From the NCBI GenBank assembly GCA_964541145.1, contig CAZIOX010000006.1, forward strand, positions 1,899 through 65,898: DNA of 64,000 nucleotides, read 5' to 3'. This document shows, one piece after another, positions 1,280 through 14,023 of this stretch. Numbering within the stretch: the first letter of the stretch is position 1; the number at the start of each line of letters is the position of its first letter. Both the position numbers and the translations under genes were made by a program. This stretch comes from an uncultured Candidatus Saccharibacteria bacterium. GTDB lineage: Bacteria > Patescibacteriota > Saccharimonadia > Saccharimonadales > UBA4665. Under the pieces are notes generated by a model. The model did no database searches. It was not told the DNA's origin and saw only the letters and a program-made list of their open reading frames with translations.

Positions 1280-1553
1280 TCATATCGCACAGTACTCTTC
1301 CGGCTACATGTGCTACGTATGTCGTCGAAATAGAGAGAACTACATAGATTCAGTAGTGGTTATTACTACAAAAAAAATAGAAAGTGGGTTGATTCTTGAG
1401 TGTTTTCGGCTTACGCTTGTAGATAGTTCGTGCGCTTGCTTGAGCGGCGCTTGAAACAAAAATGCAACATACACAGCCAGAGTATCTATCGTATCGTTCG
1501 GTACTGGCACAGCGTTTCACACTCACCCGCCGCGGGTGGGCGCGCACGAAAAC

Positions 1554-1579
1554 AATCAGACCCGCTAGTGGGTCTGATT
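1554..1579. terminator. Hairpin between convergent ligA and the 970-aa gene
   Basis: aatcagaccc / gggtctgatt form a 10-bp stem with loop gctagt. The hairpin lies in the 343-nt convergent gap. The U-tract is weak. Confidence 0.4.
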
Positions 1580-1622
1580 GCATATAGGGGCACCCTCTTC
1601 TGTGCTCTGTGCGGGAGAATCG

Positions 1623-4535
1623 CTAGTCAACTTTGGTTCGCTGTGGGCCTACCTTGACGTCGTAGTTAAAGTGCCAAAATTCGCCGGAATATTGGTATAT
1701 GCCATATTTCCAACCATTCTCAACGAGAAATGTGTAGAATGCTCTGTTGGCACCCGGAACCTTGGGCAAGGAACATATCCCCCTCACCATAACACAATTT
1801 TTTCGGGTGATATCCACACCCAAATCCCAGTCGATCGCTATCCCCACTTCATGTTTTGAGCCGCCAGGGTACGACACCCCAGCAGGGCTGATTCGATTAC
1901 GGCATTCGTAGTTGTCTTCACAGAGCTCTTTCTGATGTAGAAAAGAACGATAGCTACTCTTAGCCTTGACAGTAAGGCCTGCTGCCTGAGCATCGGCAAC
2001 AAGTCGAGAAAACGCTTCCGATGCCTCAGCGCTCACTATAGCGTGTCTATCCGACCCAGGGATATAGTATTTTGAGTTTGGATTACTTTCATCGCTTGTG
2101 CTTGGCACTTCTGTGATAGCGCACAGCATAATCTCCCCAGTTTTTTTACCTTTTGAGTCAAGTACTGGGTAAAAGCCGAGACTAACTGTCCCAACTGCAC
2201 ATTCCTCTGGGCGCGTTGGTTTGGTGATTCCTTCGGCTGGGCTGGGCATAGGGGAGACAGTTTCAGCCGCACCGCTTGCTTTTTTCTGGAGTGCCTTGAC
2301 GAGTGCGGTGGCAAATCCGCGTCTGTCCTTGTCATTTTTCCCACCTGGCATTGAGTCTGCTGCCCGTTCATAATATCGGAGGGTAAGCGTGGCGGCCTCC
2401 TCGGCAGTTTTAGCATCTTTTATCTTGTTCCAGCCTTGGCCACCATTTTTTATTTCTTCCATGACAAAATCGAGCTGAACGTCTTCTGTGTCCCAAGGCA
2501 GACCTTTGGTTGCGGCAAACTTTTTCAAGGCTACGAGTCGAGGCCCCTCCCACTGAAACAGCCCTGCAGCCGGCCCGCCAACTTGATTTTTACCGGGTTC
2601 AAAGCTACTGTTTTCATCTCGTGCATTTGCCGAAAAACCTATGGCTATATGGGGGCTCATACCACGGTCTATGAGCTTCTTGGCTATGTTGGCTTGTTTT
2701 GCGAGATACTTGTCAATGCCTGCCATTACCTCGCTTAAACTCTTCAATGTTTGCTCTTTTGTCATTTTTTCTAACCCGCCTACAGAAGCTTGACTCGCGG
2801 AAGTACTTGTTTCTTTGGACTGTCCTGTACTTGGCGTCGGTGCTGGTGGCAACTGTTTCATCAGATTTTGGAGTTCAATATCGGGAAGAGTCGAAAGATC
2901 AACGGTAGCGAGCATGGCGACCATCAGTTTTCGTTGCTCGGGCGTAAAGCCTTCCCAGTTTTTGAATGAAGAATCTTTAAACTTTTCTTCGATCAGTTTT
3001 GACCGCTCTGCAATAAGCTGTTCGAGCCCCGTGCCGGTAGCCTCTAAAATGGCCTGCTGATCTTCGGGAGTAAATGATTCGCTGACGTTAAGAGTATTGG
3101 GTTTTTCCAACGCTGCTTGCAGGCGCGCTATAAGCTTAAGAGTGTTTTCTTTGCGTTCAGCTTGTGGTGTTTTGGCTTCATAGTCGGCCACTGTTTTTCT
3201 CAGCTCTGTATCGAGTGCTGGGTTTACTTCGGGCAGCTTCTTTTGATCAGCTTGAGCGGGTGTATCGTCGGCAATCTCTGCGCTTACTGCACTTGGACCA
3301 GCAGTGCTAGCGATAGCTGCGAGCCGCTCCTTGATGGTCAGCGGCTTCCCTGTATTGTTCTCCGGCACTTTTGACGTCGGTGCACTAACCACCGCAGTAC
3401 CCGAAACGGTCTTCAGTGTATCTTCGGGCGTAACTGTTACTGTAGGTGTTTCCTCTTGGTTCGTCTTCACGCCTCCCGTGACTACTAGTAACGGGGTATT
3501 CGTGCTGAATACCGGGAGAGTGGTGATGGCTTCCACTGTGCTCGGCGGCTGGGCGACGACCAGGCTTATCCCGGGTGTGAGGGAAGGGGTTTCGGCGGGC
3601 CTCCCCTCATTTGTCGCTGCCGCTGCGCTTGGGCTCAGCGCGACTTGGCCTACTATGCTGAGTCCGACTGCCGCCAGTGTTGCTTTCTTGGGTCCGATGT
3701 CATGAGCAACCTTACCCGCTGCCTGTGCCGTGCCTATGGCGTGTCCTGTCATACGAGTAACGCTTGACTCTGGTCGGGGTATAGACCCCAAAGATTTTAC
3801 TCCAACATACCCATGTCGTGCCAACTCGTCGTACACACCTTTTGGCAGATTACTCTCGGCTTGTTGAAGTAACAGCAGTAGGAGCTTGAGATCCTTTAGG
3901 GGGACATTTCGGATGGCACCAGGGAACTGAGCGATTCGACGCTCTAGCTCTGCGCCAGAGCCATCAACCCCACGAGAATTTGCAAGGTTTGACAGTGTAA
4001 GTGAATACGCTTCCACAATTTTTGGATCACCGTTTTTCTGCAGGGCAGCGGCCGCTTTTTCTATAAAGTGCTTTGTCGCCTGAAGAGCAGTTTCATCATC
4101 GACAGGTAACAGGCGCGCAACTTGAAGTGTTTCGTTGGTCACAGCGCCCTGTTCACAAAGTTCAATCTGTTTTCGGTACACGCCGCTCAGCAACGCATGC
4201 GGCCGCACTTTGGTATGGATATCCTTAACAAGAATTTGCAATTGATCGCCGCTATACAAGTCCTCAGGAAGCCCTTTTCCAGCAAGCGAATCCCTGTATC
4301 TACCAGTAATCGTCTTAACCGCTGGAACAACCACCTTCTTATGCACGGCCTCAGACCAGCCAATCCCCATGTCACGTGTATCGTATAGATCGCCGACCGT
4401 GTGCGGGAACCATCTCAGTCCATCAACAATTGCCGCCATACTCAGTTCCATAGCAGCTGTAGTAGCAGATGTAACGTGCTCTAACACCTCTGGTTGATAT
4501 ATTGTATGGGGAGAGAATGGAGCTTCGGTATGCAT
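1623..4535 (-). CDS. Membrane-anchored bifunctional cell-wall hydrolase (lysozyme-like domain plus peptidase M15/VanY-like domain), 970 aa
   Basis: About 290 aa at the N-terminus have no TM helix, followed by one hydrophobic helix (ATLAAVGLSIVGQVALSPSAAAA). Next come a T/P/S/V-rich linker and a K/E/Q coiled-coil-like stretch. A lysozyme-like block follows (GLFQWEGPRLVALKKFAATKGLPW..QLDFVMEEI), resembling the phage-tail-lysozyme family. The C-terminal M15 motifs are SKHEVGIAID (H-x6-D) and EFWHFNY. Confidence 0.75.
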   Translation of the reverse strand: MHTEAPFSPHTIYQPEVLEHVTSATTAAMELSMAAIVDGLRWFPHTVGDLYDTRDMGIGWSEAVHKKVVVPAVKTITGRYRDSLAGKGLPEDLYSGDQLQILVKDIHTKVRPHALLSGVYRKQIELCEQGAVTNETLQVARLLPVDDETALQATKHFIEKAAAALQKNGDPKIVEAYSLTLSNLANSRGVDGSGAELERRIAQFPGAIRNVPLKDLKLLLLLLQQAESNLPKGVYDELARHGYVGVKSLGSIPRPESSVTRMTGHAIGTAQAAGKVAHDIGPKKATLAAVGLSIVGQVALSPSAAAATNEGRPAETPSLTPGISLVVAQPPSTVEAITTLPVFSTNTPLLVVTGGVKTNQEETPTVTVTPEDTLKTVSGTAVVSAPTSKVPENNTGKPLTIKERLAAIASTAGPSAVSAEIADDTPAQADQKKLPEVNPALDTELRKTVADYEAKTPQAERKENTLKLIARLQAALEKPNTLNVSESFTPEDQQAILEATGTGLEQLIAERSKLIEEKFKDSSFKNWEGFTPEQRKLMVAMLATVDLSTLPDIELQNLMKQLPPAPTPSTGQSKETSTSASQASVGGLEKMTKEQTLKSLSEVMAGIDKYLAKQANIAKKLIDRGMSPHIAIGFSANARDENSSFEPGKNQVGGPAAGLFQWEGPRLVALKKFAATKGLPWDTEDVQLDFVMEEIKNGGQGWNKIKDAKTAEEAATLTLRYYERAADSMPGGKNDKDRRGFATALVKALQKKASGAAETVSPMPSPAEGITKPTRPEECAVGTVSLGFYPVLDSKGKKTGEIMLCAITEVPSTSDESNPNSKYYIPGSDRHAIVSAEASEAFSRLVADAQAAGLTVKAKSSYRSFLHQKELCEDNYECRNRISPAGVSYPGGSKHEVGIAIDWDLGVDITRKNCVMVRGICSLPKVPGANRAFYTFLVENGWKYGIYQYSGEFWHFNYDVKVGPQRTKVD

Positions 4536-4544
4536 GTGCTATTC

Positions 4545-6611
4545 CTATGTTACGGGTTGTTTCGGTGATGAAAGGAGTGAATGGAGTAGCTTTCTTATAC
4601 CCAACCTAAAGCCCTCGACCTGCTGGGGTAGTACTGCAGGCGCGACCGGGCGATCGAGAGGAGTCTCTGGCACTACCTGATCCTGCGGTTGCGGACTGCT
4701 AGAATCCCCGTCGGTCTTTGTTATGACAGGCGCATCTTGGAGTGGTTCGGAGTAGCTAGGGAGCGCAAGCACTTGACCCAGAAACTGCTCTGCGCTATCG
4801 ATGTTTGGGCGTGTGATCATAAGTATAGGATCAAGTCGTCGTACTTGACGCTCCAATGTTGCCGTAAAGGAGTCATGCGTCTCGGATGAAAGCGCAAGAA
4901 GCTCCCCTATCTCCCGATCGAGTCGTTCTACCTCTGCTTCTACTACACTATACTCAGTCCGATCTTTTTCGCGCACCTGCTCATAAGCACTCTTCGAGGC
5001 TTCGAGCTGCTTGATAGTCTGGTGGAGTTGTTCCAAGGTATCGGCAACTTCTACTGGTAGGTATCTGGAGCTATACGATTCATAGGTCATAAACAGGCGC
5101 CCCTTAGCATCTTCATCCCCGTGTTCCGCCCATTCTTCATCCGCCAACTGTTGGTCGTGCTGCGTTTGCAAATATGCACTACGGGTATCTACTTCGGTCT
5201 TTTTTGCTCGATGTATACCTGATATTTTCTCACCAATCTGCCGGGTGGCAGTTTGTATCTGATCATTGAGCTGCCGCAGGCGGGAGCTTGCCGCCTCCCA
5301 GGCTATATTCTTCTCCTGGCCAACCGCCAATAATCCTCGTAGTGTGCACCACGTCTCGTCTGCCATACCAGCGAGTTCTACATACCCTTCGCTGACAGCC
5401 CATACTTGCTGCTCCAGAGGTGTTAGTATTGCCAAATGTCGCTCAGACTCCGTTAAAATTTCACTAAGATAGCGTTTTTTCGTTTCTACTACAGTCATCT
5501 GCTCAGCTTCAAGCCTGGTGAGCACTCCGTCGACAACCTGCACGATAGCATATAGGTTGCTTATCTCCTCAGACATGCGAGCTGGTTGTTCTGGAATCTG
5601 TTGAGTATCACCACCGACACTGGATCCCGTCGCAGTCTCTCGTCCGAAAGATACGCCCAGCAGAAAACTCCGAACTCGATCCCTCTCTTCACTGCTTGGC
5701 GCCGCTGCAATATAGTCGAGTACCGGAATCTCTGGTAGCTCAGCCATATCTGGCATATCTAGCGTAGGGACTTCTTCTGAAGGGTAGCTTCCGCCTGTCA
5801 CAAAACTTTGGTATATACCCTGTAGGTCTTCGCTGTAGCGCTCTAGGGTAGCCAACAATACCTCACCGTATGCTCCAAACGTTTTTTCGCGTTCTGCGAG
5901 CGCCTGCTTCGCTTGCTGTACCACGGCACCGTGCTCAAGCCGAACTTTCTCTGCCTCTGCAAGATCATTTTCCGTACGACGGAGTTCCTTAATGCACTTT
6001 TCAGTCTTTGAAATGGTTTCTAGTACGTTGTTGTATGCACCTCCGTTGCCTTTTCCCTGACGCAACAAGTCACTCGCTGTTGCTGAGGCCGCATCTTGTT
6101 CCTGCTGGGTATCTGCACGAGCCTTATCAGTATCGGCCACGGCACGCTCGTGCTCTGTAGCACGGGTAGTGAGCTCGTTTTCGCAAACACCGACATGATC
6201 TCGTACTGCATCGTCCACGTTCCAGCCAAAGGCGAGTACTACCAAGCTCCCGCGTATGTCGCGTAGGGCTTCTTTTCGTGTCTTCAGAGCACAGTCAAAA
6301 CGATCCATCGCTTCTGTAACCGTCTGGCAGTCTGCTGTACATTTTTCTAAGATTGCCGCCGAAAGCTCGGTCAGACGCTTCCCCAATTCTAATGCCTCCT
6401 GAACTTTCTGAGCACACTGGATGGTTTCACCCGAAGCTTCTTCGGGGAGCATACCCACTCGCAGCATTGTTTTCCGGGTGGCGATCTCTTCTGGCGTAAA
6501 AATCCGGGGCGAAAAACAGTCAACCGGTCGCTCGATTTGTGTTGTAACGACCCTCGTATGACACGCCTCTGGGATCGGCATACCTAGGATTTCGGGTGCC
6601 TGTGTCGTCAT
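4545..6611 (-). CDS. Large coiled-coil protein, 688 aa, no TM helix seen
   Basis: I moved the start to ATG 6611 (MTTQAPEIL). It overlaps the upstream stop as ATGA (6608-6611) and is preceded by GGGAGG plus 7 nt. The protein has long E/A/L/R/Q heptad-like stretches and a P-rich C-terminus. Confidence 0.7.
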   Translation of the reverse strand: MTTQAPEILGMPIPEACHTRVVTTQIERPVDCFSPRIFTPEEIATRKTMLRVGMLPEEASGETIQCAQKVQEALELGKRLTELSAAILEKCTADCQTVTEAMDRFDCALKTRKEALRDIRGSLVVLAFGWNVDDAVRDHVGVCENELTTRATEHERAVADTDKARADTQQEQDAASATASDLLRQGKGNGGAYNNVLETISKTEKCIKELRRTENDLAEAEKVRLEHGAVVQQAKQALAEREKTFGAYGEVLLATLERYSEDLQGIYQSFVTGGSYPSEEVPTLDMPDMAELPEIPVLDYIAAAPSSEERDRVRSFLLGVSFGRETATGSSVGGDTQQIPEQPARMSEEISNLYAIVQVVDGVLTRLEAEQMTVVETKKRYLSEILTESERHLAILTPLEQQVWAVSEGYVELAGMADETWCTLRGLLAVGQEKNIAWEAASSRLRQLNDQIQTATRQIGEKISGIHRAKKTEVDTRSAYLQTQHDQQLADEEWAEHGDEDAKGRLFMTYESYSSRYLPVEVADTLEQLHQTIKQLEASKSAYEQVREKDRTEYSVVEAEVERLDREIGELLALSSETHDSFTATLERQVRRLDPILMITRPNIDSAEQFLGQVLALPSYSEPLQDAPVITKTDGDSSSPQPQDQVVPETPLDRPVAPAVLPQQVEGFRLGIRKLLHSLLSSPKQPVT

Positions 6612-7897
6612 CGTGAAGCCTCCCGAATATTTCCGCAGCTCCAATGAGTGTTGACCACTTTTATCCCAAGCTGATCGGCCGTTAGAGGCTTGTTGACTGC
6701 TGCATATACATCTGCTGGCGGAACAAAAGATCCAACATACACAACCTTCAGGCCGGGTGCTTGCTCACTCACCTGGGCAGCGAGCACTTTTTCTGCCGCC
6801 GCAGCTATGTCTGCGCCACAGGTAGTTTTACCCAGTGTCTTTAAGCCCTCTGCGGTAAGATATTTGAGATATTCTGTATTTTTTGGTTCAGCCGTGAGTC
6901 GTTTATTGAGGTTTTCTACTTCTTCTTTGGTAAAGATGGTTGGCCCGGTAGGCAGCGAAAACTGAGCATTCTCGTACCATGCCTGCGGGTTGGTAGCGCC
7001 CGTACCCGGAAGGGCGGCTAGTGAGATCAACGAACGGTTGATCGTTACCATGCCCTGGGCAGTATCTGCTTTGATAACATCGCCCACTGGCTTTTGTAAA
7101 CAGGCGGCAATTGGCACCGTACCCACATACCCGGCTTGCAGAAGACGCGCTTCTGTTGGTGGCTGCGGGGCGCTCGATGGGGCAGATGTGGCCGCTGGCG
7201 CACTCGTCGCGGCGCTGGCACCTGGACCTGGAGTGGTAGTGTGGGTGGATGGAGCTGGGTTGGCACTCGGCTTTTGGACATCTTTCGGCAGCAATAGACG
7301 TTGCAACTCAGGTTGGGTTTCGAAAAAGCCAGTTAGTACTTTGGGTTTATATGCGGGATCCGCCGCGGACTTTTGTACCTCTGCGTCAGTTGCTTTCACG
7401 GTTATTTTAAGTAACGAGTCGCCTTGGTAGTCGAGTGGTACGCTAACGATAGACTGTAGGCAGTCTGGCCCAACAATATTCGGTGCGCTTTGGGGAGGTT
7501 CTACGGGGATGAACTTTTCCTTTACAAAACTACGAGCTATTCCCAGAGCCTCACCTGGCGTCGTCTCTGTTTTGACGAGTGCTACGGTTCCGGCTACAGT
7601 CAGCCCCACGCACGCCACAGCCAGCCGTTTGCGAGCAGTCCCCCATAGCACTGGGCCTAGTGGACGCCGTCCTTCTTCTGTACTCACTTCATCTGGATTT
7701 GCTCGGCTGTCCCCCACGGGCATTCTCCGGGGGACTGCGATACCTGGAAATGGCTCTCCTCCAGTGTTACTTGAAGATGCAGGAGTCGACTGGTTTTGTA
7801 ATGCTTTAAAAAAGGCATCGAAAGACGCGGAATCATGAGCTGGGGTTCCGCTCTTTTCCTCTCCGTTAGGTCCATGTTGTTCGGGTCGAGTACTCAT
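6608..7897 (-). CDS. Single-pass membrane protein, 429 aa, unknown ectodomain
   Basis: The N-terminal ~90 aa look disordered, followed by a TM helix (LAVACVGLTVAGTVALV). The ectodomain contains an S/A/P/T low-complexity insert and several Cys. The gene starts 2 nt after the upstream stop. Confidence 0.7.
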   Translation of the reverse strand: MSTRPEQHGPNGEEKSGTPAHDSASFDAFFKALQNQSTPASSSNTGGEPFPGIAVPRRMPVGDSRANPDEVSTEEGRRPLGPVLWGTARKRLAVACVGLTVAGTVALVKTETTPGEALGIARSFVKEKFIPVEPPQSAPNIVGPDCLQSIVSVPLDYQGDSLLKITVKATDAEVQKSAADPAYKPKVLTGFFETQPELQRLLLPKDVQKPSANPAPSTHTTTPGPGASAATSAPAATSAPSSAPQPPTEARLLQAGYVGTVPIAACLQKPVGDVIKADTAQGMVTINRSLISLAALPGTGATNPQAWYENAQFSLPTGPTIFTKEEVENLNKRLTAEPKNTEYLKYLTAEGLKTLGKTTCGADIAAAAEKVLAAQVSEQAPGLKVVYVGSFVPPADVYAAVNKPLTADQLGIKVVNTHWSCGNIREASR

Positions 7898-7899
7898 AG

Positions 7900-8517
7900 C
7901 TAAAGACTCCGAACCATATTTATGCCATCGCCAATATAGTTGCGAATTTCGCTGATTGGGTCTGTGCTGCCGGTTGTCTTGGTATACACACCAACTGTAG
8001 TGCCGCTAACTAATATCACGCCAAGTACCACCGAGAACAGCCTCCGCACGATGGATCTCTGACGCCTCTCAGCAAATTTTGGCCGAGCAGCTCCGGTGTT
8101 TTGAGGCAGTCTATCTTGCCACGCACGATGGTGCGCTGAGGCAGAATCGGGCCGTCGAGCAACCACAACGTGATGAAAATGCTCGACGGAGTCTATGGCG
8201 GCACTGTCCGGCGCGGGCTGTCCATCACCTCTTGCCCTAGAACTGCCCATAAACGCACCGGCCACTGCTGCTCCACCTGCCGTAAGCGTTCCTTTAAGAT
8301 GGATTTCTACAGCGCTGCCATCTGATTCTGTTCGTTTTAAAACTAGTTTACTGTCTGTATTAGGGGTTGATGGAACTGTTGCTACGTGAGAAGCAGGGAG
8401 ATCCGAGCCCGGAGGAGGAGGCGACACTTGCTCCGTAGGTGTTAACACCGCTAGATGTTCGCCCAGCTCATTATGGTTGGGTATATACTCAAGCCAGTCG
8501 ATATTCTCGGATGTCAT
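7900..8517 (-). CDS. Single-pass membrane protein, 205 aa, C-terminal TM helix
   Basis: I moved the start to ATG 8517 (MTSENIDWLEY), which overlaps the upstream stop as ATGA (8514-8517). The TM helix LFSVVLGVILVSGTTVGV lies near the C-terminus. Confidence 0.6.
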   Translation of the reverse strand: MTSENIDWLEYIPNHNELGEHLAVLTPTEQVSPPPPGSDLPASHVATVPSTPNTDSKLVLKRTESDGSAVEIHLKGTLTAGGAAVAGAFMGSSRARGDGQPAPDSAAIDSVEHFHHVVVARRPDSASAHHRAWQDRLPQNTGAARPKFAERRQRSIVRRLFSVVLGVILVSGTTVGVYTKTTGSTDPISEIRNYIGDGINMVRSL

Positions 8518-9641
8518 AGCCGAGCCCCGCTTGTTGTTGCAGTGGGTGCGCTTTGGGGCGGCATGGAACACGTTATCTTTTCGTCCAGTATAGCTTCTTG
8601 ATGTGTGGTATTTACTCCTTTGTTTTTGAGATCTTCCATATACGTCTCATCAAACATCGGTGGCTCTGTCGTTGGATTGCCGTCTTTTGTGAACACCACC
8701 GTTACTGCTTTGCCGGCTGCACGATCGCCACCTGCCAAGCGTATCGCCTGACTTTCGTAGGCAGCAACGGTGTTTTTCTGAATCTCGGGCCAGTAGTTTG
8801 GTGAACACTTTTTCCGAATTGCATCCAAAATAAGACTCTCTCCCCGAGCAGACAGGTTTGCATCTATTGCGGCTCGATCCAATACTGTGAAGGATTTAAC
8901 AATACCATCACATATTTTTCCTCGATCCCCATTAAATATCAGAGCCCCAGTGCACGCTAGCTCCAGACCTGTTCCGTTCAGACCGGGGTTTTCGAGGAGC
9001 AGTTTGAGCGGGGCATCGTGATCGACTACGATCTCTCGCTCACCCGGCTTCATCACCGGTGCGACAATAACACTCAGTTTTTCCACTGGAACTTTAACCT
9101 CTACTGGAACGTACCTACTGTTTGGCGTTGCAGGTTTCTGAGTGATTTCTACGCTCTGCTTGAAAGCAGTCATGTCGCCTTTCTGGTCTATACAGTACGT
9201 TAAATTTATCAGTTCTTTTTTGGCGACTACGCTCGAGCCAAAGCCGGGTATCTCACGATCCATAACTTCCAGTCCGAATTGAGCCCGAGAGCCAGCAGCA
9301 TCGGCCAGCGCGTGGGTGGTACAGGCGAAGTCAACAGGCTCCAGCAAAAGCGTTTTTGCCTGTACGGCTGAGCTCTCTGGACGTAGCTCATTCTTGATTC
9401 CAGCATTATGCACAAACCCCAAACCCCAGCCTATTGCAGCGCCAGTAACGGCTAACGCGCCAACCGATCTTAAAAACTTGGAAGAAATCGTTCCCAGTTC
9501 GCGGTTTTGCCTAGCTACCTCTCCATCCAGGTTGCTTAGCATAGCATTTGTGGCAGCTGCCTCGCCAGTGGGATTTGCAGGAGGAAACTCATTTATTCCA
9601 GGCTGTTGTGGTGTCATGTTCAAACCTTTGTCATACGACAC
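8514..9641 (-). CDS. Single-pass membrane protein, 375 aa, Cys-containing ectodomain
   Basis: About 55 aa are cytoplasmic, followed by a TM helix (SVGALAVTGAAIGWGLGFV) and then a ~300-aa domain with 6 Cys. I recognised no family. Confidence 0.65.
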   Translation of the reverse strand: MSYDKGLNMTPQQPGINEFPPANPTGEAAATNAMLSNLDGEVARQNRELGTISSKFLRSVGALAVTGAAIGWGLGFVHNAGIKNELRPESSAVQAKTLLLEPVDFACTTHALADAAGSRAQFGLEVMDREIPGFGSSVVAKKELINLTYCIDQKGDMTAFKQSVEITQKPATPNSRYVPVEVKVPVEKLSVIVAPVMKPGEREIVVDHDAPLKLLLENPGLNGTGLELACTGALIFNGDRGKICDGIVKSFTVLDRAAIDANLSARGESLILDAIRKKCSPNYWPEIQKNTVAAYESQAIRLAGGDRAAGKAVTVVFTKDGNPTTEPPMFDETYMEDLKNKGVNTTHQEAILDEKITCSMPPQSAPTATTSGARL

Positions 9642-9716
9642 TTACGGCACTCTCTAGAGTGCGTCCAATCTGAAGGACCTTTATCTACGACAACTAGACA
9701 CGTGGACATAGTCGAC

Positions 9717-9730
9717 ACATCTATAGATGT
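9717..9730. promoter_or_regulatory. 14-nt perfect palindrome in the 348-nt gap upstream of the 375-aa gene
   Basis: acatctatagatgt is flanked by gtcgac on one side and gtcgtcc on the other. It is a possible operator, with no further support. Confidence 0.2.
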
Positions 9731-9989
9731 CGTCCATGCCGACTACCACGTGAGGGTAGTTGCATGGCCGGCAGATGGGAACCACCCCTTCATATCCACC
9801 GGTCATACAACTCTTGGCAATTGTGCTTTGCGCAAGTATGTTCTACAGTATACATTCATACGTTTTAGATGTCAATCATTTTTGTGTTGAGTCAAATGCA
9901 GTTCAATCGTATCGTTCAGCTAGATTATGACCACCTGGAAATACTGTGTGCAATCCACTACCTTTCAGAGCACGAGAAGGTTTGAAAAA

Positions 9990-11600
9990 TTATTTTTTAA
10001 GACCAGCCAGTACAGTGCAGGCCGTTGTGCCGATTGCGGCACTGTTGGCAATAGTTTTTTTAGCCAGTGCGTCTGTCTTCAAGGTGCCAGACTTGGCTTC
10101 TTCGACCCCCCTGCTGATAATGGCTTGTATCTGGGCTTCGAGAGAGCGTGCGGGAGTTTTGGCTTGGTCCTGGACATACAGTGGCATGGTAGCGCCCGCT
10201 TTTAGCGCGTCTATAAAATCTACCGGGAGGTTGCCACCGGCAGCTCGCGTGCCAATATCGTCCGTAAATATTGGCCCATTGAAGCCATACTGTTTTGCTA
10301 AGGTATAAAATACTGCTGACTTACTCGCAGGAATGCCTGCACCTTCACCGCTGCTGGGCATAAAGGCTCCCATCATGAGGCCGGTACGTTCATTTTTCGG
10401 CACAGAAACATATGGCACAAGATCACGCTTTTTCAGTTCAGTTAGAGGTGGAACTGTCCCCGGTGCATTGTCGGTGTTGTTCGTCATACCACCGCCACCA
10501 AAATGTTTATAGACTGGGTTTATACCGTTCCCAAGCATTGATTCAGCATAGACTGTGCCAAACTGTGCAGCCACAGCCGGATCGGCACTAAATATCCTTG
10601 TTTGACCGATGGCACTTTTTGAGCCATTCTGTGGTGTCACATCGAGAACGGGGGCAAAATTGGTGTTTATGCCATAGCTCTTGAGAAGCTTTGCCCGGGC
10701 ACTCATCAAAGTGGTGACTTCGCTCGTCGGTTTTTTTGCCATGTCTTGTTGTGATGGAAAGGATTTATTTGGCGCAGTCATAAACCGGTTGACTATTCCC
10801 CCCTCGTCATCGATAGCTATCACCAGCGGCACATCAACGGCTGCTGGTGCGGCGAGCGCACGAATACCACTGGTAGGTTCCGTCATCACGATGACACCTC
10901 CGATATCGTATTTTTGGATGAGTTTTATTACATTTTGCGCAGGTGTTTTTCCATCCATGCTACTGCCATCACCCCTCACTGGGATCATAATGGTTTGGGC
11001 GATAAGTTTTTCGATAGGCAAGGCAGCTAACTGTGTCTCACAAGAAGCGGGCGATGGAGCAATTGCGGCGCCAGGAACAGCCGTTTCATTTGGCACCGAT
11101 GGTACGCTAGGAGTGGCTGTAGTCGTCGGCTTGAGTTGGCTTGTTGCCGATGCAGAAGAGGTCGTACTCGGCATTGGACTGGTTGCGACGCTGGGACTGC
11201 CAGACAAAGAAGGATCGCTATATTTTTTTGACAACCAATAGCCTCCTGCTAGTAACGCGGCTACAGTTATCGCAGCTGCAGCCCTACGCCCCCCTCTTCC
11301 CGGCTGCAACTCCGACCCTGAAGAGTGCGGCGCAGATGACCAGGCCAGTTCAGTAGCGTTCTGTCGACCCATTTGTACGACAGTGGCGTACACCGCATCT
11401 GGCAAAAGTATTTTTCCAGTTTTAAAAAACGTTGCGAGTTGGTCTGGTTCAAGCATGTATCCATGCGCGGTAAGAGCATCTAAAACATCATTCGTTGATG
11501 GTTGCGACGTTTCTTCAGCAGTGATACCTGGCGAAATGTGTGACCCATCGCCTAGAAAAGTAATTGGTGAAACCGGTTGCTGGTTGGGTGTGTTCGGCAT
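9990..11600 (-). CDS. Membrane-anchored glycoside hydrolase family 3 (NagZ-like beta-N-acetylhexosaminidase fold) protein, 536 aa
   Basis: About 105 aa are cytoplasmic, followed by a TM helix (AAAAITVAALLAGGYWL) and an S/T/P linker. GH3 N-domain blocks are present: IGGVIVM, LVIAIDDEGG, NTNFAPVLDV, KHFGGGG and FNGPIFTDDIG. Confidence 0.8.
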   Translation of the reverse strand: MPNTPNQQPVSPITFLGDGSHISPGITAEETSQPSTNDVLDALTAHGYMLEPDQLATFFKTGKILLPDAVYATVVQMGRQNATELAWSSAPHSSGSELQPGRGGRRAAAAITVAALLAGGYWLSKKYSDPSLSGSPSVATSPMPSTTSSASATSQLKPTTTATPSVPSVPNETAVPGAAIAPSPASCETQLAALPIEKLIAQTIMIPVRGDGSSMDGKTPAQNVIKLIQKYDIGGVIVMTEPTSGIRALAAPAAVDVPLVIAIDDEGGIVNRFMTAPNKSFPSQQDMAKKPTSEVTTLMSARAKLLKSYGINTNFAPVLDVTPQNGSKSAIGQTRIFSADPAVAAQFGTVYAESMLGNGINPVYKHFGGGGMTNNTDNAPGTVPPLTELKKRDLVPYVSVPKNERTGLMMGAFMPSSGEGAGIPASKSAVFYTLAKQYGFNGPIFTDDIGTRAAGGNLPVDFIDALKAGATMPLYVQDQAKTPARSLEAQIQAIISRGVEEAKSGTLKTDALAKKTIANSAAIGTTACTVLAGLKK

Positions 11601-11612
11601 ATGCTATTTCTC

Positions 11613-12209
11613 CTATTGGCGAGCAGTTTCTTGGGTAAGCGGTACGGTCACTTGAGCTGTGTTGCGCACATTTGTTGGCACGGTGGGAGTAGGCAGTTTC
11701 GTAGGGTCTGAGGGAGGAGATGCTTTCGTGGGCAAAGGTGATCGTGTAGGTAGAGCCGGTTTTGTTGGTGTGGCCGAACGTGTAGGCGACTGAGTCGGAA
11801 CAGATTTTGGATAGTCGTCTTTTATGTCGATTGCGCTCAGTAAGCCGATGAAAGGCTCAAAAAAATTATTAATCACCCGTTCTGCGCGTACTTTTGGTAA
11901 ATCATGCACAGCGTTGACTCCAACATTGACACACGATGGTAAAAAGAACGTAGCTGCAACGAACCAGAAAACTCTACGTCCCTGGCCAGTTCGCTTCTCT
12001 GGTTTGGTACTTTGCTCAGCTAGGCGGATATCCCGAATAGCCTCTGCAATTAGCTGGATATCAGGACGCAGCACGAATCGACCTGTCTCTGTATAGATTT
12101 TATCTACCAGGTCATCCCCTACCGGCACACCACTAAACTCAAGAGCACCAATAACATCCGCTGGGTATAATGCTTCCTGACGATCTGCTTCTTTTCTCCG
12201 AAATCCCAT
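11613..12209 (-). CDS. Single-pass membrane protein, 198 aa, P/T-rich C-terminal tail
   Basis: AAGGAG lies 11 nt upstream of the ATG. The TM helix is VFWFVAATFFLPSCVNVGV, and the tail is PTRSATPTKPALPTRSPLPTK. This is the first gene after the promoter region, and its stop is 12 nt before the GH3 start. Confidence 0.65.
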   Translation of the reverse strand: MGFRRKEADRQEALYPADVIGALEFSGVPVGDDLVDKIYTETGRFVLRPDIQLIAEAIRDIRLAEQSTKPEKRTGQGRRVFWFVAATFFLPSCVNVGVNAVHDLPKVRAERVINNFFEPFIGLLSAIDIKDDYPKSVPTQSPTRSATPTKPALPTRSPLPTKASPPSDPTKLPTPTVPTNVRNTAQVTVPLTQETARQ

Positions 12210-12300
12210 GTAGTTCCGTGCTCCTTACTGGCGTTCTTTAGTGGCACCTAGACCTATTCGACTGTATTGAATTACTCTCTTTTCGTTGTTTGTCAAATAC

Positions 12301-12328
12301 ATTATACTCTCATGTGTATTTTTGACAA
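12301..12328 (-). promoter_or_regulatory. Sigma-70-like promoter candidate for the minus-strand cluster
   Basis: On the minus strand the sequence reads TTGTCA, 16 nt, TATAAT. It lies about 90 nt upstream of ATG 12209 in an AT-rich divergent gap. Confidence 0.4.
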
Positions 12329-12367
12329 GTCTACAATATTATTTAGTGAGCGTGTTTCTTGACAGAG

Positions 12368-12395
12368 TTGACTATTTTGATGTTTGTGGTATTAT
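12368..12395 (+). promoter_or_regulatory. Sigma-70-like promoter candidate for 12445..13248
   Basis: TTGACT, 16 nt, TATTAT, about 50 nt upstream of the ATG. Confidence 0.3.
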
Positions 12396-12444
12396 TTTGT
12401 ATATTGGTCAAATGTGTTTCCTGTAATAGAGAGTTGAGGTTTAT

Positions 12445-13248
12445 ATGTCTGGAAGTGATTTTGGTGGTAATTGGGCTGGGATAGATGTACATGGGATCAT
12501 GAGTAGGCTTGATGCATCGCAGCTTGCCGCGGCACCGGGCCGTACGTCCCAAGTACCTGACGAGGATCCTTACGAAGGCTTCTTTCATCACCCTGACCCT
12601 GATAGTTATGCCCGACCTATCCCCATTCAGCCGACAGGTGATGTCCACGGAGATGATAGGGGACTGCCAGTACCAATAGTTTTTGCGAGCGATGACGAAA
12701 ACCGAGAAACTGCGATTACCCCTAGTCTACCCGACCCAAAGCGCGGTTTTGGGCGACGTACGCCGATAGACACCGCTGCACCTCACATGCTGCCAAGACA
12801 ACCGAGTGCTGTCGGGCGACTCACGGCAGCAACTCGTGTAAAGTTGCTCGACAGTCTCAAGGGATGGCATACGCGCTATTCGCGCTACCTACTCGACCCG
12901 ACCGAAACCCGTCCCATGAAAATAACCCCCTATGCCCTCATAGGAGCACACGCCACAGCGCTTCTGGTGGACACGGGGAATACTCCTGTTGCGTCTACAC
13001 TCGACCGTTTCTTGAGCGAAGGCAGTACTATGACTTTTTCGGGCGGAGCGCTGGCAGCAACCATACTTTTTACTATGGCAGAAGTCCGCAACTACCCTGA
13101 CGAAAAACTCGAATCGCCCATCGCTCGCCGCGTTGCCGCTGCCGCTATCCGCAACACCCTACACCCTATCACGGCTCATAGAAAACGAACGGAAAATCGT
13201 ACCTACCGAAAAGAAGCCAAAACCTCCCATAAAGCCACCCTCATCTAA
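12445..13248 (+). CDS. Hypothetical protein, 267 aa, two hydrophobic segments in the C-terminal half
   Basis: GAGG lies 6 nt upstream of the ATG. The N-terminal half is P/D-rich, with hydrophobic segments ITPYALIGAHATALLV and GGALAATILFTMA. I recognised no family. Confidence 0.55.
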   Translation: MSGSDFGGNWAGIDVHGIMSRLDASQLAAAPGRTSQVPDEDPYEGFFHHPDPDSYARPIPIQPTGDVHGDDRGLPVPIVFASDDENRETAITPSLPDPKRGFGRRTPIDTAAPHMLPRQPSAVGRLTAATRVKLLDSLKGWHTRYSRYLLDPTETRPMKITPYALIGAHATALLVDTGNTPVASTLDRFLSEGSTMTFSGGALAATILFTMAEVRNYPDEKLESPIARRVAAAAIRNTLHPITAHRKRTENRTYRKEAKTSHKATLI

Positions 13249-13360
13249 TCGCACAGCTACATCAAGGCCATAGTTACCCTCTAAGGAGCACTATCAAACT
13301 AAATTTTTCTATATTCACGTAACATATGGTAAAGTTATTTATTATTAAGGAGGAAATGAA

Positions 13361-13798
13361 ATGATAGGCATGCGTGAAAGAGTAGTCGGTATGGGGCTTT
13401 TTGGTCTAGGTGCGTTAGGAACAGTGTATGTTGGTCAACTCGCTCTTGGAACAGTTTCGGACATTGATGCTATCCAAAACCGGCCAGCTCCAATTGTAGC
13501 TGCAACTGGAAGTGTGCCAGAAAATGTCTTTGGTACGACGCAAAATCTTGTGAAACGTTTTGGAGATATTGTGAGTGATGAATGGACAATGGCCCGGTCA
13601 GCAGTTAATTTGGGTACGCTCAGTACAAGTGAGAAGCAGATTGCATCAAAAACCGAACATGCCAACACACAGTTTTTCCTCGCCGGACTCTCAGCCGCAA
13701 TGTGTGTAGGTAGCGGTTTGGTCATTGCAGGCAAAAACCCTGCGCCACTTGCAAAAACTATCGTAAACCGTACACCTCTACTCCGCGGTCGTAGTTAG
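13361..13798 (+). CDS. Small membrane protein, 145 aa, 2 TM helices
   Basis: AAGGAGG lies 7 nt upstream of the ATG. The TM helices are GLFGLGALGTVYVGQLALG and FFLAGLSAAMCVGSGLVIAG. Confidence 0.6.
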   Translation: MIGMRERVVGMGLFGLGALGTVYVGQLALGTVSDIDAIQNRPAPIVAATGSVPENVFGTTQNLVKRFGDIVSDEWTMARSAVNLGTLSTSEKQIASKTEHANTQFFLAGLSAAMCVGSGLVIAGKNPAPLAKTIVNRTPLLRGRS

Positions 13799-13909
13799 CT
13801 TCGGCACGCTCTGTTATTCTAACTAGTCAGAAGTATCTTTTTCGCTATCTTTGGTAGGAACAGATGAAATACAGCATGCGAGCTCGAAGTCGTCCTGCCG
13901 CATTCGTTA

Positions 13910-13950
13910 CAAGATAAAACGACCAGTCGACGACTGGTCGTTTTATCTTG
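13910..13950. terminator. Bidirectional intrinsic terminator (41-nt perfect palindrome)
   Basis: caagataaaacgaccagtcg, a, cgactggtcgttttatcttg. The core is a GC-rich 10-bp stem followed by a U-tract on both strands. It abuts the CCA end of tRNA-Trp. Confidence 0.8.
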
Positions 13951-14023
13951 GCAGGGGCACGTGGAATCGAACCACGATCTAGGGTTTTGGAGACCCTTAT
14001 ACTAACCGTTGTACTATGCCCCT
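13949..14023 (-). tRNA. trnW: tRNA-Trp (anticodon CCA), CCA encoded
   Basis: The reverse complement is AGGGGCATAGTACAACGGTTAGTATAAGGGTCTCCAAAACCCTAGATCGTGGTTCGATTCCACGTGCCCCTGCCA. It folds as a cloverleaf with a 7-bp acceptor stem, anticodon loop CUCCAAA and T-loop TTCGATT. Confidence 0.95.

Follow-up and report, generated by a model that had tools for sequence, protein, structure and literature searches.

A predicted exported hydrolase with two wall-cleaving modules at the end of a conserved, ATPase-free gene cassette in Saccharibacteria

The DNA analysed here, which we call the window, is a stretch of 64,000 nucleotides (nt) on contig CAZIOX010000006.1 of an uncultured Candidatus Saccharibacteria bacterium, and our subject is a long gene near its left end, whose product we call P0001. 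It is the last of seven tightly spaced genes on the minus strand, which encode proteins of 198, 536, 375, 223, 429, 699 and 970 amino acids (aa), and six of these seven proteins have one hydrophobic segment behind a hydrophilic N-terminal tail, the exception being the 699-aa protein. A first-pass annotation of the window treated P0001 as standing alone; we found instead that its gene is the terminal one of a conserved multi-gene cassette, a set of five to seven genes without an ATPase, whose core we designate A-B-C-D-E, P0001 being the product of gene E. The genome is a Saccharimonadales metagenome-assembled genome (MAG) of 1.02 Mb in 21 contigs, with 50% GC; its EF-G shares 97% identity with the EF-G of a Candidatus Saccharimonadales MAG, and every one of the next-best matches comes from Saccharibacteria. 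Those members of the group that have been cultivated live as obligate epibionts of Actinobacteria (PMC10633639).

The two-headed hydrolase

Gene E starts 9 nt downstream of the stop codon of gene D, with which it is translationally coupled, and an AGGA box lies 7 to 8 nt 5′ of its ATG. In a codon-usage log-odds comparison, its frame scores best of the three in each sixth of the gene, the N-terminal 261 codons included, and the 970-aa open reading frame (ORF) proposed by the first-pass annotation is therefore real and lies on the minus strand. A true start at an internal methionine just before the hydrophobic segment described below is unlikely, given that the preceding gene stops 9 nt before the first ATG, that codon usage backs the whole frame and that in the homologues the nearest methionine comes only after the basic n-region. 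A scan for terminators and promoters 3′ of the gene E stop codon found none.

The search with domain hidden Markov models (HMMs) found two wall-hydrolase modules in tandem, as that annotation had claimed, both above their Pfam cut-offs. PF18013 (Phage_lysozyme2) matches aa 615 to 745 with E=5.5e-22 and 78.9 bits against a cut-off of 28.2, spanning profile positions 4 to 136 of 140, and PF02557 (VanY) matches aa 834 to 958 with E=1.4e-11 and 44.7 bits against a cut-off of 25, spanning positions 4 to 129 of 132. The motifs that had been quoted for the two modules are where they were said to be, at aa 658–664 (GLFQWEG), 687–695 (QLDFVMEEI), 893–902 (SKHEVGIAID) and 952–958 (EFWHFNY). One module is thus predicted to cleave glycan strands, the other stem peptides.

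The catalytic residues are also present after alignment. A profile of five lysozyme modules, from P0001 and its relatives (alignment A4), was searched against solved structures and hit, with E=4.6e-12, the lysozyme at the N-terminus of gp13 from phage phi29 (PDB 3CSR/3CSQ). E641 of P0001, which is invariant in that alignment, is aligned to gp13 Glu45, the proposed catalytic residue, and Q651 is aligned to the substrate-stabilising Gln54 (PMC10394673). In the peptidase module, residues R863, H895, D902, E952 and H955 match the LdcB/YodJ structures 4OX3, 4MPH and 4JID residue by residue, and the LdcB-type motifs SYRS, SxHxxGxAxD and ExWH are all intact. By motif, R863 is the substrate-binding arginine of SxYRS, while H895, D902 and H955 are the zinc ligands (H-x6-D...H) and E952 is the catalytic glutamate of ExxH. 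P0001 scored 18.0 bits against NCBIfam NF041194 (LdcB) and 20.9 bits against NF000380 (VanXY), missing the equivalog cut-offs of 275 and 250; judged by its sequence, the peptidase is a member of the LAS/M15 superfamily and no orthologue of LdcB or VanXY, and we assign it no bond specificity.

N-terminal to these modules lie the T/P/V-rich spacer and the K/E-containing segment that had been described at first pass. The spacer (aa 308–440) is 17% T, 12% P, 11% A and 11% V, and the segment that follows it (aa 441–560), which we call the mid-domain, is rich in L, E, T, K and A. The mid-domain matches no Pfam family, and its motifs AILxGTGTGxE (aa 495–505) and LATxDL (aa 542–547) are invariant columns in our alignment A1.

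The N-terminal domain has no match that can be named, as had been noted at first pass. An exhaustive HMMER search of 1.84 billion representative proteins with the N-terminal 310 aa of P0001 found no relative at E<=0.001, and a Foldseek search of the PDB with the domain's fold returned nothing better than E=0.1. The AlphaFold (AF2) model behind that search, built on three sequences, is all-alpha and of low confidence, with a predicted local distance difference test (pLDDT) score of 53 and a predicted template modelling score (pTM) of 0.50; the alignments under both of our structure models, this one and that of the A ectodomain, are shallow. A helical repeat and a 14-3-3 fold were considered and rejected as meaningless, the best PDB matches being generic and at E>=0.1. 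Among the E proteins, the three that are closest (P0001 and its orthologues at two further loci, L093 and L096) have N-domains that align weakly, at ~23% identity, and homology between the N-domains of E proteins from families f1 and f32 is not detectable (hhalign probability 0.1%).

Between the N-domain and the linker, the first-pass annotation had placed a transmembrane (TM) helix. A hydrophobic segment is indeed found at aa ~283–307, but a stable anchor is not the sole reading of it, given its borderline hydropathy (Kyte-Doolittle 1.54 over 19 residues) and its signal-peptide anatomy. In P0001 the sequence runs GPKK-ATLAAVGLSIVGQVAL-SPSAAAA, followed by TNEG, with the positive charges of PKK before the segment and an acidic, T/P-rich stretch after it. 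All 11 E proteins have a single hydrophobic segment 180 to 420 residues from the N-terminus, and in all 11 it consists of one or two basic residues, often after a proline, and then an Ala/Gly/Val/Leu stretch of 15 to 18 residues; a small-residue motif, an A-x-A ending and a T/S/P/E-rich linker come after this h-region. AxA follows the segment in 10 of the 11 E proteins and in 8 of 73 controls, the latter being proteins of the same genome with a single internal hydrophobic segment, while AAA follows it in 8/11 and 3/73, respectively. Since this n-/h-/AxA anatomy recurs among the E proteins, the ectodomain may be cleaved off rather than anchored. The segment looks like a Sec signal peptide with a signal-peptidase-I site, but an internal one, ~280 aa into the protein, and it may be either a type II anchor or a place where cleavage releases an enzyme of ~660 aa. 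Charge distribution and linker composition suggest an N-in/C-out topology for P0001. The features of the gene and of its neighbours are collected in Table 1.

Table 1. Cassette genes and protein regions in the window (position 1 is the first letter of the window)
Feature	Coordinates	Strand	Basis
Gene E (P0001), predicted exported bifunctional peptidoglycan hydrolase, 970 aa	1623..4535	minus	ORF/translation, Pfam, coding-frame score
VanY/LdcB-like LAS zinc peptidase domain (PF02557, MEROPS M15), aa 834–958	1662..2036	minus	Pfam; structure-based alignment
gp13-type lysozyme domain (PF18013), aa 615–745	2301..2693	minus	Pfam; profile match to 3CSR
Conserved helical mid-domain, aa 441–560	2856..3215	minus	Identity with P0002; invariant columns of alignment A1
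T/P/A/V-rich extended linker, aa 308–440	3216..3614	minus	Composition
Signal-peptide-like internal segment, aa 281–307 (PKK, 16-residue h-region, SPSAAAA)	3615..3695	minus	Hydropathy; anatomy common to E proteins
Hydrophilic all-helical orphan domain, ~280 aa, predicted cytoplasmic	3696..4535	minus	HMMER, AF2, Foldseek
Gene D, cytoplasmic helical/coiled-coil protein (688–699 aa) with no TM segment	4545..6644	minus	Library searches, profile comparison
Gene C, 429 aa: single-pass, TM ~aa 90, ectodomain	6608..7897	minus	Hydropathy, homology, family HMM
Gene B, ~205–223-aa protein with C-terminal TM segment (aa ~173–197)	7900..8571	minus	Hydropathy, family HMM
Gene A, 375 aa: single-pass, TM ~aa 59, Cys-containing ectodomain; best cassette marker	8514..9641	minus	Homology, alignment A3, AF2
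Accessory enzyme gene, 536 aa: cytoplasmic N-tail, TM, S/T/P linker, GH3/NagZ-like domain	9990..11600	minus	Pfam, NCBIfam
Gene that opens the run, 198 aa: single-pass, TM ~aa 80, P/T-rich tail	11613..12209	minus	Hydropathy, counterpart at L097

The cassette and its relatives

A search of an index of 5.8 billion proteins with full-length P0001 found one homologue, P0002 (987 aa), which is 48% identical to P0001 over aa 468–762 and shares its layout, but ends in a Peptidase_C39_2 domain instead of VanY. P0002 is encoded on a 14-kb metagenome contig (L093), where the gene order is that of the window. A 368-aa protein of this contig is 31% identical to A (E=7e-46) and a 444-aa protein is 27% identical to C (E=5e-22), while the hydrolase gene is preceded by one for an 825-aa protein that lacks TM segments and weakly matches the window's D; at the position of the GH3 gene there is a polysaccharide deacetylase. 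At locus L108, the C counterpart (462 aa) is 50% identical and the GH3 protein 60% identical to those of the window. Within the same genus, genome G025 has a cassette with a lysozyme2+CHAP protein, and G021 has a partial one, with a GH3 protein 60% identical and an A protein 42% identical to ours. The HMM of the B family matches the equivalently placed genes of L093, L096 and L108, and at L097 a protein of 190 aa, whose TM segment lies at aa 80, takes the same relative place as the window's 198-aa protein. In G020, G613 and G666, cassette order and TM positions are kept where sequence similarity is gone. Other searches reached less far: a search of word-indexed proteins with the A protein found only itself, one with alignment A1 had no match, and back-translated pattern scans of genome and metagenome contigs returned the G025 locus only, or nothing.

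As we define it here, a cassette ends in a gene for a long protein with an N-domain, an internal export segment, a linker and one or more peptidoglycan hydrolase heads, upstream of which are encoded a TM-less helical protein and an A-type single-pass protein, and this is the arrangement seen in the window. Synteny was judged by homology of A, B and C where detectable, and otherwise by the same TM positions and gene order. About a dozen relatives were found in this way, with syntenic cassettes at L093, L096, L108, L097, L109, L111, L113 and L099–L101. L093, L096, L097, L109 and L111 have the A-B-C-D-E shape of the window, L108 is partial, and L113 has A-D-E after an unclassified 460-aa gene. 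A shortened A-A′-D-E form is found in a second family, at L099–L101 (genomes G262, G408 and G166), and a related shortened form occurs in G534 (own family). In the second family, the A gene is duplicated in tandem, the family HMM matching L100 10830–11852 (E=4e-8) and L101 6998–8185 (E=1e-6). We also observed that the shortened cassette lies directly downstream of uvrA in L100, where Pfam confirms the assignment, and in L101, and that L099–L101, which are from different genera, have the same four genes after the cassette, while other genomes of those genera are without it.

The terminal E protein always bears wall-cleaving heads, but their type varies, and the combinations seen across cassettes are lysozyme2+VanY, lysozyme2+C39_2, lysozyme2+CHAP, glucosaminidase+CHAP, NlpC/P60, SLT and glucosaminidase+lysozyme2+VanY. 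The enzyme encoded upstream is swapped too, being GH3 in some cassettes and polysaccharide deacetylase in another. The partners, by comparison, are conserved. The D-position proteins examined consist to 48–55% of E/Q/K/R/L/A, and none of them has a Walker A motif; library searches with the window's D gave coiled-coil-type weak matches only. The idea that D is a degenerate VirB4 was rejected on the lack of Walker A and an hhalign probability of 0.04%. The AF2 model of the A ectodomain, of fair confidence (pLDDT 70–90), shows a beta-sheet region and, after it, a long helical hairpin, with conserved cysteines, and its fold has no match in the PDB or BFVD, VirB8-like structures included. Thus, A as a VirB8/TcpC-like NTF2 protein is not supported, and its modelled ectodomain may represent a fold family that is new and confined to these cassettes. 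A distant paralogy between the ectodomains of A (375 aa) and C (429 aa) is not detectable (hhalign probability 0.2%). The 536-aa accessory protein matches Pfam Glyco_hydro_3 with E=1e-35 and an NCBIfam beta-N-acetylhexosaminidase family with E=1e-25, the latter below the family cut-off.

Two smaller observations concern the upstream end of the run. The cytoplasmic N-tails of the 198-aa and GH3 proteins (window 9990–12209) share a motif of ~40 aa, DV..AL...G....D.L....TG...L.PD, and the polysaccharide deacetylase at the matching position of the cassette in L093 (1280–2791) has a similar stretch, ALNTVLYQYGYGSPQERKDIILGIQAGTPADPQLIRDAL, at its head, so that this shared N-tail handle seems, from these sequences, to be tied to the cassette position and not to the enzyme. 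In addition, a gap of 348 nt (9642–9989) separates these first two genes from the five-gene core; the same site is filled by a gene for a 248-aa multi-TM protein in L093 and for its 289-aa homologue in L096, a gene that is missing in the window.

The cassette behaves as an accessory element and sits in a variable interval. Profile searches found marker A in 11 of the 310 genomes of the family and in 4 of the 23 genomes of the second family, and a single-sequence search found it in 5 of 401 genomes across the order, with presence and absence within single genera; these are lower bounds, as the marker evolves fast and the profile HMM misses diverged cassettes, that of G020 among them. In the window, the interval between ligA and pgl measures 12.7 kb and contains the cassette (1280–14015, compared with L104, L105 and L106). 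In three relatives of the same genus (G008, G015 and G004), this interval holds 2.1, 3.8 or 6.7 kb of unrelated cargo, after which the same pgl-gnd-zwf genes follow. By eye, the cargo of the relatives includes Fic-like, alpha/beta hydrolase-like, kinase-like and membrane proteins.

Secretion-system and phage context

The first-pass annotation had likened P0001 to the VirB1-like hydrolases of conjugation systems and to phage tail-tip lysins, adding that no conjugation or phage genes were present nearby. Pfam, NCBIfam and PHROG searches of the neighbours bear out the latter point, since these domain-library searches found no type IV secretion system (T4SS), phage or defence families next to P0001. 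Only the lysozyme module of P0001 itself matched PHROGs, with none of the 8 neighbouring proteins doing so, and tblastn against phages gave partial matches only, at <=40% identity over part of one domain. A prophage or defence island was rejected, there being no PHROG match in any neighbour and nothing from PADLOC other than a weak, coiled-coil-type match to LmuB, and a lysin of a phage structural module was likewise rejected, as PHROGs found no phage structural genes around the locus.

The likeness itself holds at the level of domains, as the match to gp13 shows, and P0001 has the VirB1-like trait of combining glycan- and peptide-cleaving domains in a membrane-associated protein, according to Pfam and hydropathy. 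A PF18013 gene also lies directly after the gene for a VirB4-like ATPase on the Lactobacillus gasseri plasmid pHL20_1. This plasmid (L107, NZ_CP072179.1 6421–13191) carries a pLS20-type conjugation module of a VirB6-like TM protein, two small genes, the ATPase and a protein annotated as "phage tail tip lysozyme", and its order is that of the Saccharibacterial T4SS core.

What did not stand is a role as the hydrolase of a T4SS cluster, which we rejected since the neighbours of P0001 hold no T4SS families, D is unrelated to VirB4 and the T4SS of this genome is encoded elsewhere, complete and with hydrolases of its own. Its locus is on contig C7 (46463–60850), outside the window, and reads VirB6-like protein of 1075 aa, 398 aa, 288 aa, VirB4-like ATPase of 642 aa, VanY-tipped membrane protein of 991 aa, glucosaminidase+M23 protein of 445 aa and 503 aa. 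Eight relatives in the genus keep this order, with a VirB4 88–93% identical and a post-VirB4 protein only 25–54% identical. VanY-tipped ORFs of ~1000–1150 aa, in a genus-wide search, all occupy the slot right after virB4, and P0001 shares with these proteins the VanY module only, at 28–40% identity. We found the T4SS locus in all relatives that were examined, in contrast to the patchy cassette, and the other cassettes also lack virB4 and always lie away from it. Hydrolases adjoining virB4 have been reported to be essential in Ca. Southlakia epibionticum ML1 (PMC12102498).

Candidate functions

Several known systems resemble parts of this design. One is phi29 gp13, the tail-knob "morphogenesis protein 1" and type of PF18013, whose lysozyme fold is homologous and whose Glu45 and Gln54 have equivalents in P0001; in both proteins, a glycan cutter is followed by a metallopeptidase on a flexible linker, acting on a wall from the outside, which for P0001 is a prediction. 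However, gp13 is a soluble virion protein of 365 aa with an M23/LytM peptidase, while P0001 has 970 aa, a predicted cytoplasmic N-domain, a putative export segment, a stalk, a mid-domain and an M15 peptidase, and is encoded on a chromosome with no phage genes nearby. The VirB1-like PrgK (pCF10), TraG (pIP501), TcpG and the PF18013 gene of pHL20_1 likewise pair a glycosidase with a peptidase in a membrane-associated protein that opens peptidoglycan for an envelope machine, but their genes lie inside T4SS clusters and their anchor is N-terminal, whereas P0001 belongs to a cassette with neither ATPase nor VirB6, on a contig other than that of the T4SS, and has its segment ~280 aa in. The hydrolases in the T4SS slot of Saccharibacteria (991 and 445 aa on C7) come from the same lineage and have the same habit of swapping heads, with VanY heads 28–40% identical to that of P0001; the 991-aa protein differs in its N-tail of ~100 aa, followed by a TM segment and further hydrophobic segments, in having no lysozyme2 domain, and in its neighbours, which are not those of the cassette. 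LdcB/YodJ and VanY (4OX3, 4MPH and 4JID) have a homologous catalytic domain, the metal-binding and catalytic residues of which are kept in P0001, where the domain is instead the C-terminal head of a large, probably exported multidomain protein. Finally, by analogy only, SpoIID, SpoIIM and SpoIIP of Bacillus combine membrane-anchored hydrolases with non-enzymatic partners, without an ATPase, at an interface between two cells, although they have no sequence or fold relation to the cassette and work between the mother cell and the forespore of one organism.

We hold with moderate confidence that P0001 is an exported bifunctional hydrolase that cuts peptidoglycan outside the cell, probably that of the host wall. 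P0001 would be made with a helical cytoplasmic N-domain of ~280 aa, and the Sec-type segment (aa 281–307) would thread the remaining ~660 residues outward, where a T/P-rich stalk of ~130 aa, the helical mid-domain, the muramidase-fold domain (E641) and the zinc peptidase (H895, D902, H955, E952) would follow in this order. D, together with the cytoplasmic N-domains and tails, may form a scaffold that places or gates export of the enzyme at one site. The wall of the host could then be cut at the contact site for breaching it, for harvesting wall sugars and peptides, or for both, and the GH3/NagZ-like partner would fit the harvest of wall sugars. The target would most likely lie beyond the cell's own sacculus and is possibly the host's wall, and we favour this host-directed function on four grounds: the organism lives as an epibiont, the cassette is patchily distributed, heads are exchanged and the stalk is long.

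Some considerations weigh against this proposal. The interaction between D and E and the role of the N-domain are both steps that we purely infer, the N-domain model having a pLDDT of 53. Head swapping and patchiness would equally fit an autolysin set or a weapon against competitors, the word accessory may be an overstatement with prevalences that are lower bounds, and, with a GC content that is not atypical, the cassette shows no sign of recent transfer. Moreover, relatives of LdcB and VanY are often carboxypeptidases that trim stem peptides and not lytic endopeptidases, and the peptidase of P0001 may do the same instead of breaking cross-links.

The main rival, which we regard as possible but rather unlikely, is that the cassette serves the epibiont's own wall, with a membrane-tethered set of autolysins (muramidase, peptidase and NagZ-like enzyme) opening or recycling the sacculus during growth, budding or the insertion of surface machines, and with D and the N-domains coupling hydrolase activity to the state of the cell, as in FtsEX-PcsB/RipC or SpoIID/M/P. 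Every enzyme involved is of a housekeeping autolysin type. LdcB-like enzymes and NagZ trim and recycle muropeptides in Firmicutes, and the LdcB structures are relatives of P0001; each ectodomain protein also has a cytoplasmic tail, with a cytoplasmic partner besides, and L093 encodes a peptidoglycan deacetylase, as is typical of self-wall modification. However, it would be odd for a core growth function that the marker is missing from most genomes of the genus and family and that catalytic heads are exchanged between close cassettes, and a stalk of ~130 aa with a mid-domain added seems longer than reaching one's own wall would require. The same exchange of heads, combined with the patchy distribution, recalls polymorphic toxin loci, and P0001 could be a contact-dependent weapon, exported or tethered, that lyses rival epibionts or non-hosts, while a membrane partner or a wall-modifying enzyme protects the producer; for example, the L093 deacetylase could shield the producer's glycan from the lysozyme. 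We think this improbable, since domain-library and PADLOC searches revealed no recognisable immunity gene, known toxin-delivery domain or secretion ATPase, and since the partner genes are conserved and do not co-vary with the heads.

About equally doubtful is a role in trans for the T4SS, in which P0001 would be a VirB1-like hydrolase relocated from the T4SS locus to open the wall for that system or for a pilus. Its VanY head is closest (32–40% identity) to those of the post-virB4 proteins of the same genus, a PF18013 hydrolase fills the post-VirB4 slot in the Lactobacillus conjugation module, and the virB4-adjacent hydrolases of S. epibionticum were reported as essential (PMC12102498). Yet this genome has a complete T4SS locus that includes two hydrolase genes of its own, and the cassette has no VirB4, VirB6 or VirD4, its D being unrelated to VirB4 and its A having no VirB8-like fold match; in the dozen or so genomes where it occurs, the cassette also comes with conserved partner genes of its own and in each case lies away from virB4. 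The idea of a remnant of a prophage or integrative element, namely a domesticated tail-tip lysin or a fragment of a tape measure, would account for the matches of the lysozyme module to phage tail and tape-measure PHROGs and to gp13, and for the location in the variable ligA-pgl interval. It is very improbable, however, as none of the neighbours matches PHROGs and the run holds no integrase, tRNA, capsid or tail gene, as the phage matches do not exceed 40% identity over part of one domain and the GC content is native, and as about a dozen genomes repeat this gene order with no phage genes in it.

A more elaborate version of the host-directed function, which taken as a whole we consider unlikely, would make the cassette a hitherto undescribed device that works without an ATPase. 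D would bind the N-domains or tails of A, B, C and E and fix the site of insertion, the internal signal peptide and Sec would send the hydrolase out, and signal peptidase would free it after the AxA motif, with the N-domain staying behind as an "address label". The released, species-specific heads would then breach or harvest the peptidoglycan of the host and act as determinants of host range.

The enzyme modules and the two-enzyme design were already known from phi29 gp13, the VirB1 analogues of the PrgK/TraG type and the T4SS hydrolases of Saccharibacteria. In contrast, as far as we have searched the literature, the scaffold, with its large cytoplasmic N-domain, internal export segment, stalk and conserved mid-domain, is undescribed, and so are the dedicated cassette without an ATPase and the swapping of heads outside a T4SS. 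To our knowledge, it is not known how host-attached Saccharibacteria and other Patescibacteria pass or feed on the wall of the host, and attention has so far been on type IV pili and on the T4SS with its adjacent hydrolases. The cassette is a second gene set, separate from the T4SS, that appears to present peptidoglycan-cleaving enzymes with conserved membrane and cytoplasmic partners of its own, and an export segment behind a cytoplasmic domain of 180–420 aa is an unusual build for a secreted enzyme. If the cassette is a set of autolysins for the own wall, the function would be ordinary and only its package unusual; interest would grow if the internal signal peptide or the targeting of the host proved true. 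If these enzymes are directed at the host, they would be candidates for determinants of host range and for the harvest of nutrients derived from its wall.

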